Below, piece after piece: positions 78-55,890 of a stretch of DNA of 61,525 bases. Within the stretch, counting starts at the first letter, position 1. Each line of letters begins with the position of its first letter. Below the pieces are notes generated by a model, which was not told where the DNA came from, ran no database searches, and saw nothing but the letters and a program-made list of their open reading frames with translations. The stretch comes from a virus. Taxonomy: Duplodnaviria > Caudoviricetes. The stretch covers positions 1-61,525 of IMG/VR virus record IMGVR_UViG_3300030708_002846; one strand, 5' to 3'. The position numbers and the translations under genes were made by a program.

Positions 78-265
78 TCAGCATTAGATATTTTTTCAAT
101 AAGTTTATCGCATTCATCTACATGTTGTGGATGTTCTCCTATACCCACAGGTTTTTCCATGTAAATTTTTAATGTTGCTTCTGCCTCTGAAATTTGTGCA
201 TTGTATCTATCTTCTAAAGCTTGTATTATTAAATTTCTAAACACCGCACATTCCTTCGCATTCAT
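41..265 (-). CDS. small hypothetical phage protein (start uncertain)
   Basis: ORF lies between the PAPS-reductase-like gene and DUF3310 across the junction; stop abuts the DUF3310 start. Confidence 0.6.
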   Translation of the reverse strand: MNAKECAVFRNLIIQALEDRYNAQISEAEATLKIYMEKPVGIGEHPQHVDECDKLIEKISNAEEKLETLQAFKL

Positions 266-1076
266 TGTTAAACAAATCTTGTTGACTATCTTCTTTAAAT
301 TTTACCTCATCTAAAGGTTTACACTGCCTATGAACAAAGTTTTTGACTGGTGTATTATACATTCTCATATGTTTATCAAATTCTACAGCTTTTTCAAACT
401 CTTTTGGTCTATTATTTTTCATATCTAACCAAAAAGCATCATCATGAAATGGGCAACCAATGCAAGCTGATTTAGCTGGTGTTCTATAACCTTTACCCTC
501 ATACCATTTAAGGCAATCCTTTCGTGACATATTCTTTTCGATTAAAGGCCAAGTGTTTTTTTGCCACCAAAATCTTGAAGGTTTCATTCTCATTATTTCA
601 TCAGTAGAGATGCCAACCCATACCTCTACCCAATCATCTTTTTTCATTCTCTGCCTTGGTTTATAACCTAAAACTTCTCTTATCTTTTTAGCAATTGGAG
701 TAATCTTGTACTCTCGTGTGCATTGTCTACGACCCATACCTTTTTTACCTTTTTCATTTAATGTATAGAATGGAGCAGAAGCAAATTGATTACCTCCTGG
801 AGATAAAGCTTTCAATATATCTTTATCTAAATCTCCTTTTTTACAAATATGTATTGGTATGGATATTGTTTTTTTAAGCCACTCTAAATGTTCTAACACG
901 GGAGCAGGTTCCCAACCTGTATCAGCGAATACCATAAAGTCTGGTTTTTCTTCAAATAACCCTTCATGTGCCATCAGAGCCATTGTGCTTGATTGTACAC
1001 CAGCACCCAATGACAATACTCTTGCAAGCGGTTTATCTTTTCTTTTAATCAATTTTCCTTCTATTCTTGTTATCAT
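237..1076 (-). CDS. PAPS-reductase-like / PP-loop adenine nucleotide alpha-hydrolase family protein
   Basis: LSLGAGVQSS and FADTGWE motifs; Cys motifs SACIGCPFH and ECEGMCG. Confidence 0.7.
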   Translation of the reverse strand: MITRIEGKLIKRKDKPLARVLSLGAGVQSSTMALMAHEGLFEEKPDFMVFADTGWEPAPVLEHLEWLKKTISIPIHICKKGDLDKDILKALSPGGNQFASAPFYTLNEKGKKGMGRRQCTREYKITPIAKKIREVLGYKPRQRMKKDDWVEVWVGISTDEIMRMKPSRFWWQKNTWPLIEKNMSRKDCLKWYEGKGYRTPAKSACIGCPFHDDAFWLDMKNNRPKEFEKAVEFDKHMRMYNTPVKNFVHRQCKPLDEVKFKEDSQQDLFNNECEGMCGV

Positions 1077-5061: not shown

Positions 5062-5607
5062 TTACTCCTTCGCTTTTATCTTTGTTCGTGTTGCTACGTA
5101 AACACCGAATAAATCGGCAGGAACATTACGACCATTTTCGATTTCATCTCTTACGAAACCTTTTAATGTCATAGGTTCTACCTTTTCGGCTTGCTTAACA
5201 TTATGCCCTTTATTTCTTAATTCGTCAACCAAAGTTTTAGCTTCATTATCTTGGCTTCTTCCAAAAGTTAAAGTAACATTATTTTTGATTAAATCTCCGT
5301 GACCATTATCACGTAACCAATCAAAAGCTTCTTCCTGTCTGGATACAGGTATCCTTGCTGCATAGTAAGGTTTTACTTCTACAGAGGAACCATCATTAAG
5401 TTTTAATAATTGTATCCCAGCTTGTTGCATGAGATTTGGAATATCGTTTTCAGAAAGTTTTGTTTCAGTCGCTTTTACTTTTTTTAATTTATCTTCTAGA
5501 TCTGATAGTTCTTTCTGGACGTCCAATAACTCATTACATTTTTTTGCTATGTCTGCTGACATGCTAGTATCGATTTTTACGTCTTTCGATAACTGTTCTA
5601 AGTCCAT
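5062..5607 (-). CDS. conserved phage replication-module protein (start reassigned to ATG 5607)
   Basis: AGGAGG SD upstream of ATG 5607; coiled-coil N-terminus; AFDWLRDNGHGDLIK motif. Confidence 0.75.
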   Translation of the reverse strand: MDLEQLSKDVKIDTSMSADIAKKCNELLDVQKELSDLEDKLKKVKATETKLSENDIPNLMQQAGIQLLKLNDGSSVEVKPYYAARIPVSRQEEAFDWLRDNGHGDLIKNNVTLTFGRSQDNEAKTLVDELRNKGHNVKQAEKVEPMTLKGFVRDEIENGRNVPADLFGVYVATRTKIKAKE

Positions 5608-5624
5608 ATGACCTCCTTGTTTAT

Positions 5625-5685
5625 GTGAGGATCTTATAAATATGTTATTTGACAATGTAAAGAAAAAAATATATTAATGGGACAA
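5625..5685. promoter_or_regulatory. divergent sigma70-like promoters
   Basis: + strand TTGACA(5649)-17-TATTAA; - strand TTTACA-17-TATAAG; lies between divergent genes. Confidence 0.6.
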
Positions 5686-36145: not shown

Positions 36146-36688
36146 TTATGCAATAGTTGCAATTGGAGTTGATAAAGTCTCAGCTTTGTAAGTTGAGTTA
36201 GTACCATCATCCTTAATGCAAGTTAATCTTACTCTTGCGTTCACAGCAGTTGTCGCTGGTAAAGTTAGAGTATCACCTGCAACGTCACTCGCTGGGTTAG
36301 CAGCTGTTCCACCCATTAATGAAAGAGCACCAAAAAAATTTGATACACCTGAACCAGGTAAAACAAAAGTAACAGTTTTTCCAGAACCTACAGCAGTTGT
36401 TACAAAAAACTCGTAAGTGTTTCCAACGTTTGCTGTGCTTAAAGCTGGCATATTAACAACGATATCATCTGTTCCATCTACTTCAAAAATAGTTCCTGAT
36501 TGAGCAGTAGTTAAAGTTGTAGTTACAGCCGCACCTGTGTTTAAAGTCGTGTTATCTACTGTTGTTCTAAAGTTTGGTCTAGCATCATATGTAGCTTCGA
36601 CTGTAATAGCACCTGTCGTGCTATTTTTTGTTATTTGTTCGAAACCATTTTCCGATCGTACTGGTCCCGAAAAAGTTGTATTTGCCAT
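36146..36688 (-). CDS. capsid-associated / decoration protein
   Basis: MANTTFSGPVRS N-terminus; Thr-rich; follows the capsid gene. Confidence 0.6.
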   Translation of the reverse strand: MANTTFSGPVRSENGFEQITKNSTTGAITVEATYDARPNFRTTVDNTTLNTGAAVTTTLTTAQSGTIFEVDGTDDIVVNMPALSTANVGNTYEFFVTTAVGSGKTVTFVLPGSGVSNFFGALSLMGGTAANPASDVAGDTLTLPATTAVNARVRLTCIKDDGTNSTYKAETLSTPIATIA

Positions 36689-51777: not shown

Positions 51778-52281
51778 TCAACAAATTCGAAATCCATTAC
51801 TATCTTCGCAGAACTCAATGAACTCTTTTACGTTTTCCAAAGTGAATGGATAAGAACTTCCATAATCATATTTAGATTGAATCCAATTCCACGTGTCATG
51901 GTCTTCAGCAGGGTAGTCTCTTGGTGCTAGACCTTTCTTGTTTGTTTCAGCTTCAACTTTCTTCCGAAGCATTTCATGTAGCTTATTTACTTGGGCGTTG
52001 TTGGTCTCGGCTTTTTTTGTATCTTCCTTTGTTTCATCAATAGCTTTTTTTACCATGCCATTATCAATCAAAGCCCTTAATTGATTTGCTATCTGTTTCG
52101 CTTTTTCGCCACTTACCTCATGTCCCTCGTTATGTTGCCACGCAGGTTTATCTTCATGCTCAATAACTCCCGTGTGTTCACATACAAATTGAGCGAGGCG
52201 TCTCCACCACCAAACATTGTTTCTGAAGTATTCGCCCTTTTCTGTTTTGTGTTGTCCTAGACTGTATAAATCAAAGCCCAT
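51778..52281 (-). CDS. conserved hypothetical early protein
   Basis: MGFDLY; YFRNNVWWW; own promoter and AGGAG SD. Confidence 0.8.
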   Translation of the reverse strand: MGFDLYSLGQHKTEKGEYFRNNVWWWRRLAQFVCEHTGVIEHEDKPAWQHNEGHEVSGEKAKQIANQLRALIDNGMVKKAIDETKEDTKKAETNNAQVNKLHEMLRKKVEAETNKKGLAPRDYPAEDHDTWNWIQSKYDYGSSYPFTLENVKEFIEFCEDSNGFRIC

Positions 52282-54397: not shown

Positions 54398-54916
54398 TTA
54401 GTCTTTAACAGACGTTTCTGGCGTAATGTCAATGATGTTTTTGGCTTCACCGATTTTCGACTCAAGCTCATCTAAACGTTTCTCCAATTGCTCTCTTGAT
54501 AATCCTTCTAATCCTAAATGTGTTACTTCTTTTCGATCAACAAAGAAACCTGCCATTTTGCCTTTTGCTACCTCAGCATTAATTGCTGCAGTAAACTGAC
54601 CTTTGTTCTCTGCACCGTTTCGTAACCTGTCATAAGTTTTATAAGATTTTAATTTATCTTTTTCGTAAATTGCTAATTCTTGAGCCATTCGTTTTTCTAA
54701 GTATCTACAAACATGTGGATTAACATCAGGATTGGTTAATCTACTTGCTGTCTCAGTAGGGCCATATTTGTTTTTGGAAGTGTAACCAGCTTCTTTAGCT
54801 GCATCTACCTTCGAAATCTTGCCATAATTCTCTACGTAAATATCTACAAATCTTTTTTGTTTTGGTGTTAATTCAGTAATTGTCCGTAAAGCTTTTGATT
54901 TTTGTGGCATGTCCAT
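54398..54916 (-). CDS. terS: terminase small subunit
   Basis: LTPKQKRFV..Y...AAKEAGY HTH; AAI.AE...GK.AG. Confidence 0.8.
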   Translation of the reverse strand: MDMPQKSKALRTITELTPKQKRFVDIYVENYGKISKVDAAKEAGYTSKNKYGPTETASRLTNPDVNPHVCRYLEKRMAQELAIYEKDKLKSYKTYDRLRNGAENKGQFTAAINAEVAKGKMAGFFVDRKEVTHLGLEGLSREQLEKRLDELESKIGEAKNIIDITPETSVKD

Positions 54917-54930
54917 ATACTATACCTCTA

Positions 54931-55080
54931 TCCTAGAAAAATAAATACAGGTCAATAAAATTCTATTTTTTGTTCGTAAGAAATGTAATTTTTCCTAGAA
55001 TTCTAGGAAAATTCCTAGTAGTTTCCTAGTTCTTTTTGTTCTATTAGTGTTGATATTACTTGTTTTTCCTAGTTTCCTAG
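54931..55080. repeat. TCCTAG repeat cluster with 22-bp palindrome
   Basis: TTTTCCTAGAATTCTAGGAAAA at 54990-55011, plus copies at 54931, 55012, 55023, 55066 and 55074. Confidence 0.75.
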
Positions 55081-55209
55081 TAAAAAGTGTTGAAATGAAA
55101 AAAAATTATTTATTTTTTTTTCTAAGTAAAGGGTATAGGGAAACACACTACATTAGAACGTTTCTAAAGTACTTTTTGGTTGATTTTCATGTGAATCACG
55201 TATATCTCT

Positions 55210-55295
55210 ATAGTGTTTTTCATTTAGCTCTTTTCTCACATAAACAGGAGGTCAACATGGATTGGATCCAGGGGGAAACCCCTTCCATGCTGGCC
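55210..55295 (+). ncRNA. candidate small RNA 1 (leader mimic, GAAA-capped stem); 5' end uncertain
   Basis: 55250-55261 pairs with 55284-55295; AGGGG-GAAA-CCCCT; possible TTGATT -35 at 55180. Confidence 0.45.
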
Positions 55296-55349
55296 CGTGA
55301 GCCGTGGTCAATTGCTCTTGACAACAGGTTCAAAAAAATTATATACCGT

Positions 55350-55425
55350 ACACGATTAATTAATCATCCCTACGTTTATGTTTAAGGTAGCTCTGGGGAG
55401 GGGAGACTCGAACCAGGGCTTAAAC
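55350..55425 (+). ncRNA. candidate small RNA 2 (antisense seed plus GAGA-capped stem)
   Basis: TTGACA(55318)-16-TATATA promoter; AGCTCTGG/CCAGGGCT stem; GGG-GAGA-CTC cap. Confidence 0.45.
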
Positions 55426-55890
55426 AATCACAGAAATAAGGATACTAGTAAACAAAGCTGTCGTTGCATCACTCACGCATCTTCGTAAATGTTCTAAATG
55501 TTTACGATGGTATTTTTTAGATTCATGCTCCTTACAATCACGGTACTTGTGATATTGAACATAATATCTTCTCCAGGCTACTTGTTTTTGGGTAAATTTT
55601 ATATCACCTCTTTTAATGGCTTTTATATACTGTTCTTTTACATGCTCAGGGGTAAAACCTGACCAGTAACAAATCCTTTCGAAATCATCGTTAGAATTAA
55701 AAATCCAGTTATGTGCATCGAATTTATATACACTAGACTTACGATCATTTTGATTAGTTGCTGAATCTTCAATGGCATTACATAAAACACCACGCCACAG
55801 CTTCTCCTCTGATGGCACCTCTTGTGTAGAAAGTAACTTAGCTGCGAAGCTAGTGCCCATAAGTTTTAATAAGGTAAGTGAGTAAGTCAC
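55420..55890 (-). CDS. conserved hypothetical phage protein (likely start ATG 55860)
   Basis: E.KLWR.VL..A.ED; DF..IC motif. Confidence 0.7.
   Translation of the reverse strand: MTYSLTLLKLMGTSFAAKLLSTQEVPSEEKLWRGVLCNAIEDSATNQNDRKSSVYKFDAHNWIFNSNDDFERICYWSGFTPEHVKEQYIKAIKRGDIKFTQKQVAWRRYYVQYHKYRDCKEHESKKYHRKHLEHLRRCVSDATTALFTSILISVIV

Follow-up and report, generated by a model that had tools for sequence, protein, structure and literature searches.

A near-copy of a replication-operon ribosome-binding site at the head of a putative plus-strand non-coding unit upstream of terS in HTVC023P-type pelagiphages

Introduction

Bacterial leader RNAs that sequester the SD sequence, and minimal 'start-stop' upstream frames, are of a known kind. 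RNA sponges of the CsrB/RsmZ type carry many GGA motifs in hairpin loops, and the STAB-SD sequences of Bacillus mRNAs are SD sequences that act as 5' stabilizers. The sponges AgvB and AsxR are said to mimic the targets of host sRNAs. These two RNAs are described as phage-encoded anti-sRNAs of enterohaemorrhagic E. coli (PMC4104026).

The element described here, at positions 55210-55295 of a pelagiphage genome, shares features with each of these systems. Like the SD-sequestering and start-stop leaders, it has a strong SD-AUG followed by a stop at once or soon, and its ribosome site has a complement in an anti-SD-like stretch farther down the same putative RNA. It differs from them in controlling no downstream protein gene and in that its 3' partner is a small structured RNA. 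As in AgvB and AsxR, a phage RNA would imitate the target site on an mRNA and base-pair with a small RNA, but the likeness is superficial, since the small RNA here comes from the same strand, only 100 nt distant, and shows no preferential pairing with the mimicked leader. The element resembles CsrB/RsmZ RNAs in imitating a ribosome-binding site, whereas it has a single SD that is not in a loop. With STAB-SD it has in common an SD near the RNA 5' end and no requirement for a real protein start; the organism and the RNase set differ. The element may be classed as a phage intergenic structured RNA or leader of putative function.

Phages of the HTVC023P type are described as the most abundant known phage group in the sea (10.1101/2019.12.14.876532), and are reported to have no RNA polymerase of their own but to rely on that of the host (PMC12753301). 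Their early genes all lack an assigned function. A literature search returned no paper on a pelagiphage sRNA, a paper examined among those on pelagiphages and non-coding sequence does not concern an element such as this one, and the passages searched in papers on HTVC023P-type phages mention no promoter, intergenic or non-coding element. A conserved non-coding unit at the early/late boundary that is absent from Rfam is a concrete handle on the switch from early to late expression, and comprises iterons, a divergent box, a copy of a ribosome site and a small RNA with a covarying hairpin.

Genome Context

The window, meaning the whole 61,525-nt stretch of DNA analyzed, is one complete virus record with nearly all genes on the minus strand. 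What looks like a 'direct terminal repeat' of the record is an exact overlap of 77 nt, as is typical of a circular assembly, and was rejected as a clue to the physical ends; the true circle thus measures about 61.4 kb and the ends of the record are arbitrary. The element sits in a 503-nt gap (54917-55419) between two minus-strand genes, and the gene whose leader it resembles lies at the head of the early/replication operon:

54398-54916, minus strand: terS (phrog_51), one flank of the gap
55420-55890, minus strand: last gene of the upstream minus-strand operon, the other flank of the gap
5062-5607, minus strand: gene with the copied leader (DUF7307, 'Pam3 gp33-like')
5603-5655, minus strand: genuine leader of this DUF7307 (Gam-like) gene, which heads the early/replication operon; TTTACA-N17-TATAAG lies upstream

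Pelagibacter phage HTVC023P alone among phage records matched the region in DNA sequence, and only over window positions 54985-55080, while at the protein level kinship is broad and includes terS, terL, portal, DNA polymerase, helicases and primase. Phage records give relatives of the DUF7307 gene the annotation DNA-ends-protecting protein or host-nuclease inhibitor, i.e., Gam-like, and the gene is followed by a Pam3_Gp34-like gene and then by genes for a primase and a UvrD-like helicase.

In other lineages, unrelated plus-strand genes fill the slot before terS: gp20 in HTVC023P, open frames in L016 and L196, and gp31 in HTVC027P. No homologue of HTVC023P gp20 was found in the window or in any of the loci fetched through terS (17 viral and 50 metagenome). 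In HTVC027P (L234, 1075-1514), for which a transcriptome has been published, gp30 and the divergent gp31 lie upstream of terS without the non-coding unit, which rules this phage out as a test bed. Gp30 is reported to be an ArfA-like ribosome-rescue factor (PMC12753301), and the slot seems to collect translation-related cargo.

Rfam 15 gave no match at the gathering score in the window. A permissive search of 54900-55500 returned only chance-level matches (E 1.3-9.3) lying outside or across the element, and one of three relatives' loci returned a single unrelated match (E 0.93). ARAGORN gave 0 genes, and the TTCGAG-like stretch at 55397-55415 was accordingly not taken for a tRNA, a tmRNA or an att site. 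Transcripts and termini were sought in Logan contigs of 24 runs, in which no DNA ends were seen, though contigs cannot show them; the sole RNA run (X20) gave one 161-nt contig at 55912-56072, outside the element, and its missing cover elsewhere is uninformative.

The Copied Ribosome-Binding Site

Two overlapping features of the plus strand are at issue:

55235-55261, plus strand: copy of the translation-initiation region of gene 5062-5607, with the SD AGGAGGT at 55246-55252 and ATG at 55257-55259
55257-55385, plus strand: 42-codon open frame, not a conserved gene

An earlier note on this DNA had pointed out a near-copy of the replication-operon leader, and the alignment bears this out. Plus-strand 55235-55261 and minus-strand 5629-5603 share an exact 12-mer, an exact AGGAGGTCA and then ATGGA, with two indels of 1-2 nt offsetting the shared blocks. 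The exact 12-mer occurs at only two places in the window, the copy and the leader, and its full length rests on one base because 55237 is polymorphic at strain level (C to A in L003, a 98.8% identical relative, and in run X10).

The specificity of the match was assessed by aligning the 43-nt start region of 55257 to those of the 143 ATG-started ORFs of at least 50 codons. The 5607 leader scored 18 and the next best 9, against a mean of 3.2 (sd 2.0) over the 143 start regions, and copies from four genomes scored above the 99th percentile of 1000 shuffled leaders. The likeness between copy and gene extends past the ATG to about codon 5 (55271): the gene starts ATGGACTTAGAACAG, and the copies read ATG-ACTTAG..AACAG in L008, ATG-ACTTGGATCAG in L004 and L005, and ATGGATTGGATCCAG in the window. 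The possibility that all strong start sites are alike was rejected, the full 43-nt likeness being unique to 5607 and 9-mer counts being at chance level; ACATAAAC precedes the SD of the genes starting at 52281 and 57709 as well. Judged by these alignments, gene 5062-5607 has in the near-copy a true and conserved paralogue of its leader and first codons. A striking 27-nt copy alone is not enough to infer a decoy.

The frame that follows the AUG has 2, 16, 17, 18 or 42 codons depending on the lineage, in differing frames, and in two distant lineages it stops after 2 codons (ATG ACT TAG or ATG ACT TGA). The 42-codon frame matched no PHROG family. By ORF reading, this 2-42 codon frame is the only plus-strand gene candidate within 55257-55419, and there is no downstream gene to control. 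A regulated 42-aa peptide starting MDWIQG had been offered as an alternative, and the strong SD at an ideal distance from the ATG speaks for it. The variation in frame and length, the lack of a PHROG family, and the conservation of nucleotides and pairing instead of codons led us to reject it; such a peptide is very improbable, and on the frames compared, a conserved protein from the 42-codon frame is already refuted.

Conservation among Relatives

The copy was found in five lineages of the window group, consisting of (i) the window, L003 and L181, (ii) L006, L007, L188 and L189, (iii) L008, L067, L183 and L184, (iv) L185 alone, and (v) L004, L005, L186 and L187. A sixth, more distant lineage (L013, L213, L061 and L194; the L013 group) has a generic SD-AUG module at the equivalent position. 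The GGAG and ATG are invariant in all six, with a 4-5 nt spacer that varies, and the flanking non-coding DNA of the five copy lineages is 69-83% identical. Both copy and hairpin are absent from L009, L010, L036, the L038 group, L014, L016, the L196 group and HTVC023P, the last of which has iterons and the CGTG motif (see below). Since the L038 group and L014 hold the 3' RNA without the copy, the copy module is dispensable.

Copy and leader had been expected to co-vary in related phages. Both sites are on one contig in four genomes (the window, G001, G002 and G003; the L003 contig is without the leader), and none of the four copies is closest to the leader of its own genome. When eight leaders were compared with eight copies, window-group copies scored 7-21 against window-group leaders and 2-10 against others, while copies of the L013 group resembled no leader (scores 3-10). 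As far as such scores can tell, this fits a single event of duplication or conversion in the window group's ancestor, after which copy and leader drifted independently, and does not fit continuing co-evolution of copy and leader, the resemblance being at group level only.

The Putative Plus-Strand Unit

The features of the plus strand around the copy are the following:

55181-55207, plus strand: possible promoter TTGATT-N15-TATATC (putative)
55216-55234, plus strand: conserved block GTTTTTCAT..AGCTCTTTTC in the alignments, likely the 5' part of the putative transcript
55250-55295, plus strand: 12-bp lower stem proposed in the earlier note (55250-55261 with 55284-55295), only in the window and L003
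55270-55283, plus strand: apical GC hairpin AGGGG-GAAA-CCCCT, 100% of cells paired in 7 sequences
55318-55345, plus strand: promoter-like TTGACA-N16-TATATA, preceding the downstream small RNA
55367-55381, plus strand: anti-SD-like segment TCCCT..GTTTATGT, whose complement in the copy is ACATAAAC plus the beginning of the SD; GTTTATGT is invariant
55390-55419, plus strand: terminal hairpin GCTCTGG / CCAGGGC with loop GGGAGACT (55401-55408); its covarying stem marks the end of the unit

The arrangement is clearest in the L013 group, where a promoter (TTGACA-N17-TACTGT), the GTTTTTCAT..AG block, an SD-AUG-stop, a AUCAUCCUUUCUAAG stretch and a T-tailed hairpin follow one another as a single promoter-to-terminator unit, roughly 170 nt long. 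The two halves are set apart in the window group by the CGTG motif and another promoter-like site. What had been taken for two small RNAs, 'sRNA 1' and 'sRNA 2', look like the two halves of one conserved plus-strand unit when the lineages are aligned, and the small RNA-like part (55343-55420, plus strand) belongs to no Rfam family.

The TTGACA and TATATAC at 55318-55345 are invariant in 13 sequences. A promoter scan called neither of the plus-strand sites (55181-55207 and 55318-55345), the second because the scan was a simple one and the second hexamer ends in a base other than T. Sigma-70-like promoters are plausible here, since the phages are reported to rely on the host RNA polymerase (PMC12753301).

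Compensatory changes were seen at 8 of the 10 predicted pairs of the terminal hairpin in 15 sequences, which were chosen by the loop word and a nearby word, so that conservation of the loop is partly by construction and that of the stem is not. The loop GGGAGACT is conserved across distant lineages (L013, L014, L038, L061, L194 and others), and a search for loop targets found no second exact copy of it in the window. A T run follows the hairpin in 8 of the 15 sequences, the window not being among them.

The Hairpin Next to the Copy and Its Lower Stem

The AUG had been described as locked in a 12-bp stem with one mismatch, capped by AGGGG-GAAA-CCCCT. The cap holds up well: its five pairs are formed in 7/7 sequences, with one compensatory pair (G-C to C-G in two of the seven), and GAAA is the usual loop, with AUA-like loops in L067, L183 and L184. 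The lower stem is present in the window, where it has 11 pairs (one G-U) and one mismatch and is reproduced by ViennaRNA as the minimum-energy fold, but it is not conserved. Across 7 sequences, 57.9% of the cells of the 12 lower pairs are paired, compensatory changes number 0, and 8 of the 12 pairs depart through unpaired cells. The energy of the local fold is unremarkable (z -1.23, 24 of 200 shuffles as good; z -1.09, 25 of 200).

The hairpin at 55270-55283 is not an intrinsic terminator, as the stem is followed by TCCATGCTGG and not by a U run, and the terminator scan was silent. The many GGA motifs in hairpin loops typical of CsrB-like RNAs were not seen; the single SD is in a stem or single strand in all folds.

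Predicted Pairing of the Copy with the 3' Segment

An exact 8-nt inverted repeat links the copy (55238-55245) to the 3' segment (55374-55381). Pairing was evaluated between the 20 nt ending in GGAG and the 50 nt before GGGAGACT in all sequences where a copy could be located. In these 15 of 15 sequences, the cis duplex was better than mononucleotide shuffles (p 0.000-0.040). In a second test, the true partner was ranked against every natural 42-mer of the same locus and strand, using one to three sequences per lineage with near-duplicates omitted. The 42-mers that paired with the copy as well or better numbered 45/906, 0/620, 5/469, 5/479, 0/907, 8/907, 7/479 and 54/1768, ranks that are not independent because the tested sequences are related. 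The complementarity of the SD-proximal part of the copy to the segment called sRNA 2 in the earlier note is thereby upheld in silico, the segment being a top 5% local partner in 8/8 sequences.

The genuine leader gave a different picture. In the equivalent rank test, 142/906, 7/620, 89/469, 147/907, 272/907 and 569/1238 of the natural 42-mers were as good or better, i.e., the leader was a top-5% partner of the 3' segment in only one of six genomes, and the decoy logic of the earlier note is not sustained. Against shuffles, the leader gave p values of 0.037, 0.000, 0.010, 0.160 and 0.467 in five genomes and 0.160 in G008, and it ranked 7th of the 143 start regions of the window in pairing with the 3' segment; for the copy of the window the score was -11.7, where 292 start regions averaged -8.1 (sd 3.2). 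By these predictions, the copy pairs with the 3' segment in every lineage and the genuine leader mostly does not.

Window-group copies paired better with window-group than with L013-group 3' segments in 5/5 cases, and L013-group copies paired about equally well with some window-group segments. The sequences of the helix differ by group (ACATAAAC/GTTTATGT vs TAACTTAG/CTAAGTTA), and the helix does not amount to strict covariation, because it is AU-rich and its 3' strands are not positionally homologous between groups. RNAalifold did not predict the long-range helix from a 13-sequence alignment, in which the L008 group is out of register near the hairpin.

DNA-Level Features of the Gap

Between terS and the copy, and overlapping the foot of the lower stem, are features that probably belong to the DNA:

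54992-55080, both orientations: six TTCCTAG iterons between terS and the element (6 of the 9 copies in the window)
55111-55138, plus strand: right arm of a 28-nt inverted repeat, 79% complementary to the left arm (54920-54947), which is the upstream region of terS
55291-55306, plus strand: motif TGGCCCGTGAGCCGTG, core CGTG-NNN-CGTG, family-wide; its first bases are the 3' arm of the lower stem

The 28-nt inverted repeat flanks the iterons, and each arm holds a box CTARG-N5-GGTATAG (CTAAG-N5-GGTATAG in the right arm). Sites of this box are at 54936 (minus), 36741 (minus), which is upstream of the gene starting at 36688, and 55122 (plus). By eye, both arms change together across lineages (GGTATAG, GGGTATATA, CTATATAG), and the box may be a phage-specific, perhaps late, promoter element. 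In that case, terS may have an almost leaderless message, read from its second ATG (54910). The iteron palindrome is adjoined by a promoter-like site for terS.

The iterons include a perfect 22-nt palindrome (54990-55011) directly upstream of terS. In relatives, other iteron words are found at the equivalent place (CTCCTAG, TTCCCAG, ATCGCGACAC and others), and such variation suggests a DNA-binding protein that is probably lineage-specific.

The motif TGGCCCGTGAGCCGTG had more than 118 matches in IMG/VR among the matches listed, compared with 39 for the reversed control, and 103 of 118 match loci among the matches listed encode kin of this phage (controls, 5 of 39). Among the matches listed, 123 instances comprised 36 in the helicase homologue, 24 near terS, 1 in the polymerase and 62 elsewhere. 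The window holds 8 instances of the core CGTG-NNN-CGTG, 6 of them on the plus strand (4119, 7714, 47874, 55295, 56366 and 60490; minus strand, 53496 and 52353), against 0.35 expected, and five relatives hold 40 against 11 for the backward control; relatives with the motif include G005-G008 and HTVC023P. Copies inside genes hold their position in relatives, synonymous bases included, as in the primase gene (7/7 relatives). Of the 15 loci read upstream of terS, 8 have the motif and 7 do not, and its place relative to the RNA features varies. These two properties, the keeping of genic copies and the variable place near RNA features, mark it as an element in its own right that probably acts at the level of DNA. 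That it overlaps the stem looks incidental, and it may be a protein-binding, nicking, priming or packaging signal. The motif, whose fuller form is GGYYCGTGANCCGTG, is dispersed and strand-biased, and tandem 7-nt arrays of it are seen in GC-rich relatives.

Metagenome contigs (runs X6, X7 and X10) branch at 55105-55141, at a conserved T-run/GGGTATAGGG block, into unrelated sequence, which points to a mosaic junction between co-occurring relatives.

Possible Roles of the Element

The best-supported reading, to which we would give a little less than an even chance, is that of a copied ribosome-site module that pairs in cis within a plus-strand non-coding RNA. Positions 55210-55295 would be the 5' module of a putative unit of about 200 nt (about 55214-55420) that diverges from terS in one branch of HTVC023P-type pelagiphages. 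The module would consist of a paralogous copy of the DUF7307 RBS and first codons, heading a minimal or decayed frame, and then the GC hairpin. The stretch just 5' of the SD and running into it would pair with the anti-SD-like 55367-55381, before the terminal hairpin, so that each of the two, ribosome site and 3' small-RNA domain, would mask the other; this fold could be opened when a 30S subunit binds or by brief (two-codon) translation. The module might thus act as a ribosome-dependent switch or as a 5' stabilizer of the small RNA, and the output would be the fold or stability of that RNA, whose own conserved feature is the GGGAGACU loop. Several observations favor this reading: the specific likeness to one leader out of 143 start regions, the keeping of the copy in five lineages and of an SD-AUG module in the sixth (L013 group), the invariant GGAG and ATG around a variable spacer, and the 2-codon frame of two distant lineages. 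To these can be added the single promoter and T-tailed terminator that in the L013 group enclose SD-AUG module and 3' domain alike, the cis complementarity (15/15 against shuffles, 8/8 within the top 5% of natural 42-mers), the 5/5 preference of window-group copies for window-group 3' segments, and the 8/10 covarying pairs of the terminal hairpin, alongside the apical hairpin. From these we infer a transcript and its ends, ribosome binding and a regulatory output. The reading is weakened by the silence of the promoter scan on both plus-strand sites, by the RNAalifold result, by the modest pairing in the window (45/906 natural 42-mers as good), by the comparable pairing of L013-group copies with some window-group segments and by the dispensability of the module. 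The GGAG and ATG could also be kept for base-pairing and not for ribosomes.

It is possible, though unlikely, that the copy is a relic without RNA function, the 5' end of the DUF7307 gene having been duplicated or converted into a recombination-prone cargo slot upstream of terS and left to drift. This would account for the unrelated plus-strand genes of the slot in other phages (HTVC023P gp20, the L016/L196 frames and HTVC027P gp31), the branching of assembly graphs at 55105-55141, units that look internally duplicated in the region, a frame that decayed differently by lineage and a local fold no better than shuffles. A drifting relic is harder to reconcile with a copy that is recognizable in five lineages despite an identity of only 69-83% in the flanking non-coding DNA, with an SD and ATG intact in six while the spacer varies, and with complementarity to the 3' segment kept in every lineage. 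That last point, together with the conserved SD-ATG, is also left unexplained if the hairpin, CGTG-NNN-CGTG, iterons and flanking inverted repeat form a protein-binding region of the DNA (a packaging start, an origin or a control region of the late terS promoter) and the leader likeness is incidental. We consider such a site improbable, although the motif is enriched in the phage family and dispersed on one strand, its copies hold position inside genes down to synonymous bases, and its place relative to RNA features differs between groups; next to terS, the iterons differ by lineage, are surrounded by the 28-nt inverted repeat and abut a promoter-like site at their palindrome. Hairpin and copy are absent in the motif-bearing lineages L009, L010, L036 and L038, and the motif is missing upstream of terS in 7/15 loci. 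The decoy or sponge of the earlier note, in which the copy would mimic the replication-operon leader and titrate a translational repressor or the downstream small RNA that would otherwise act on this leader, so as to time the early/replication genes, draws on the specificity of the copy for the DUF7307 leader among 143, its complementarity to the 5' segment of the small RNA, the closeness of window-group copies to window-group leaders over those of other groups, and a second, ATG-less copy (of the terS upstream region) on the same strand. The leader does beat shuffles in 3/5 genomes (p 0.037, 0.000 and 0.010), but not significantly in G001, G005 and G008 (p 0.16, 0.47 and 0.16), and it is a top-5% partner in only 1/6 genomes and 7th of 143 start regions. 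With 0/4 copies closest to their own leader, L013-group copies that resemble none (3-10), and one SD in place of the many GGA loops of protein sponges, this model is unsupported and we regard it as slightly less likely still. Less probable again, and quite unlikely, is a plus-strand RNA that imitates the first start regions of both large operons (55235-55261 for the Gam-like/replication operon and the ATG-less 55111-55138 for the terS upstream region), carries the anti-SD segment, is driven by the same box as the terS promoter, and serves late in infection as a competitor for ribosomes or a start-site-binding factor, moving translation on from the early to the late genes.

Other Observations

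A gene for a PAPS-reductase-like protein (phrog_424) lies at 237-1076 (minus strand), within the replication module; such genes in phages are often linked to DNA modification. Within the coding region of the DUF7307 mRNA, a hairpin spans about +17 to +40 (window 5545-5590, minus strand; L138-L141 and L231-L233), which is maintained by compensatory synonymous changes and has other sequence in distant relatives, and a 5-bp stem also links the SD of this mRNA to codons 2-3.
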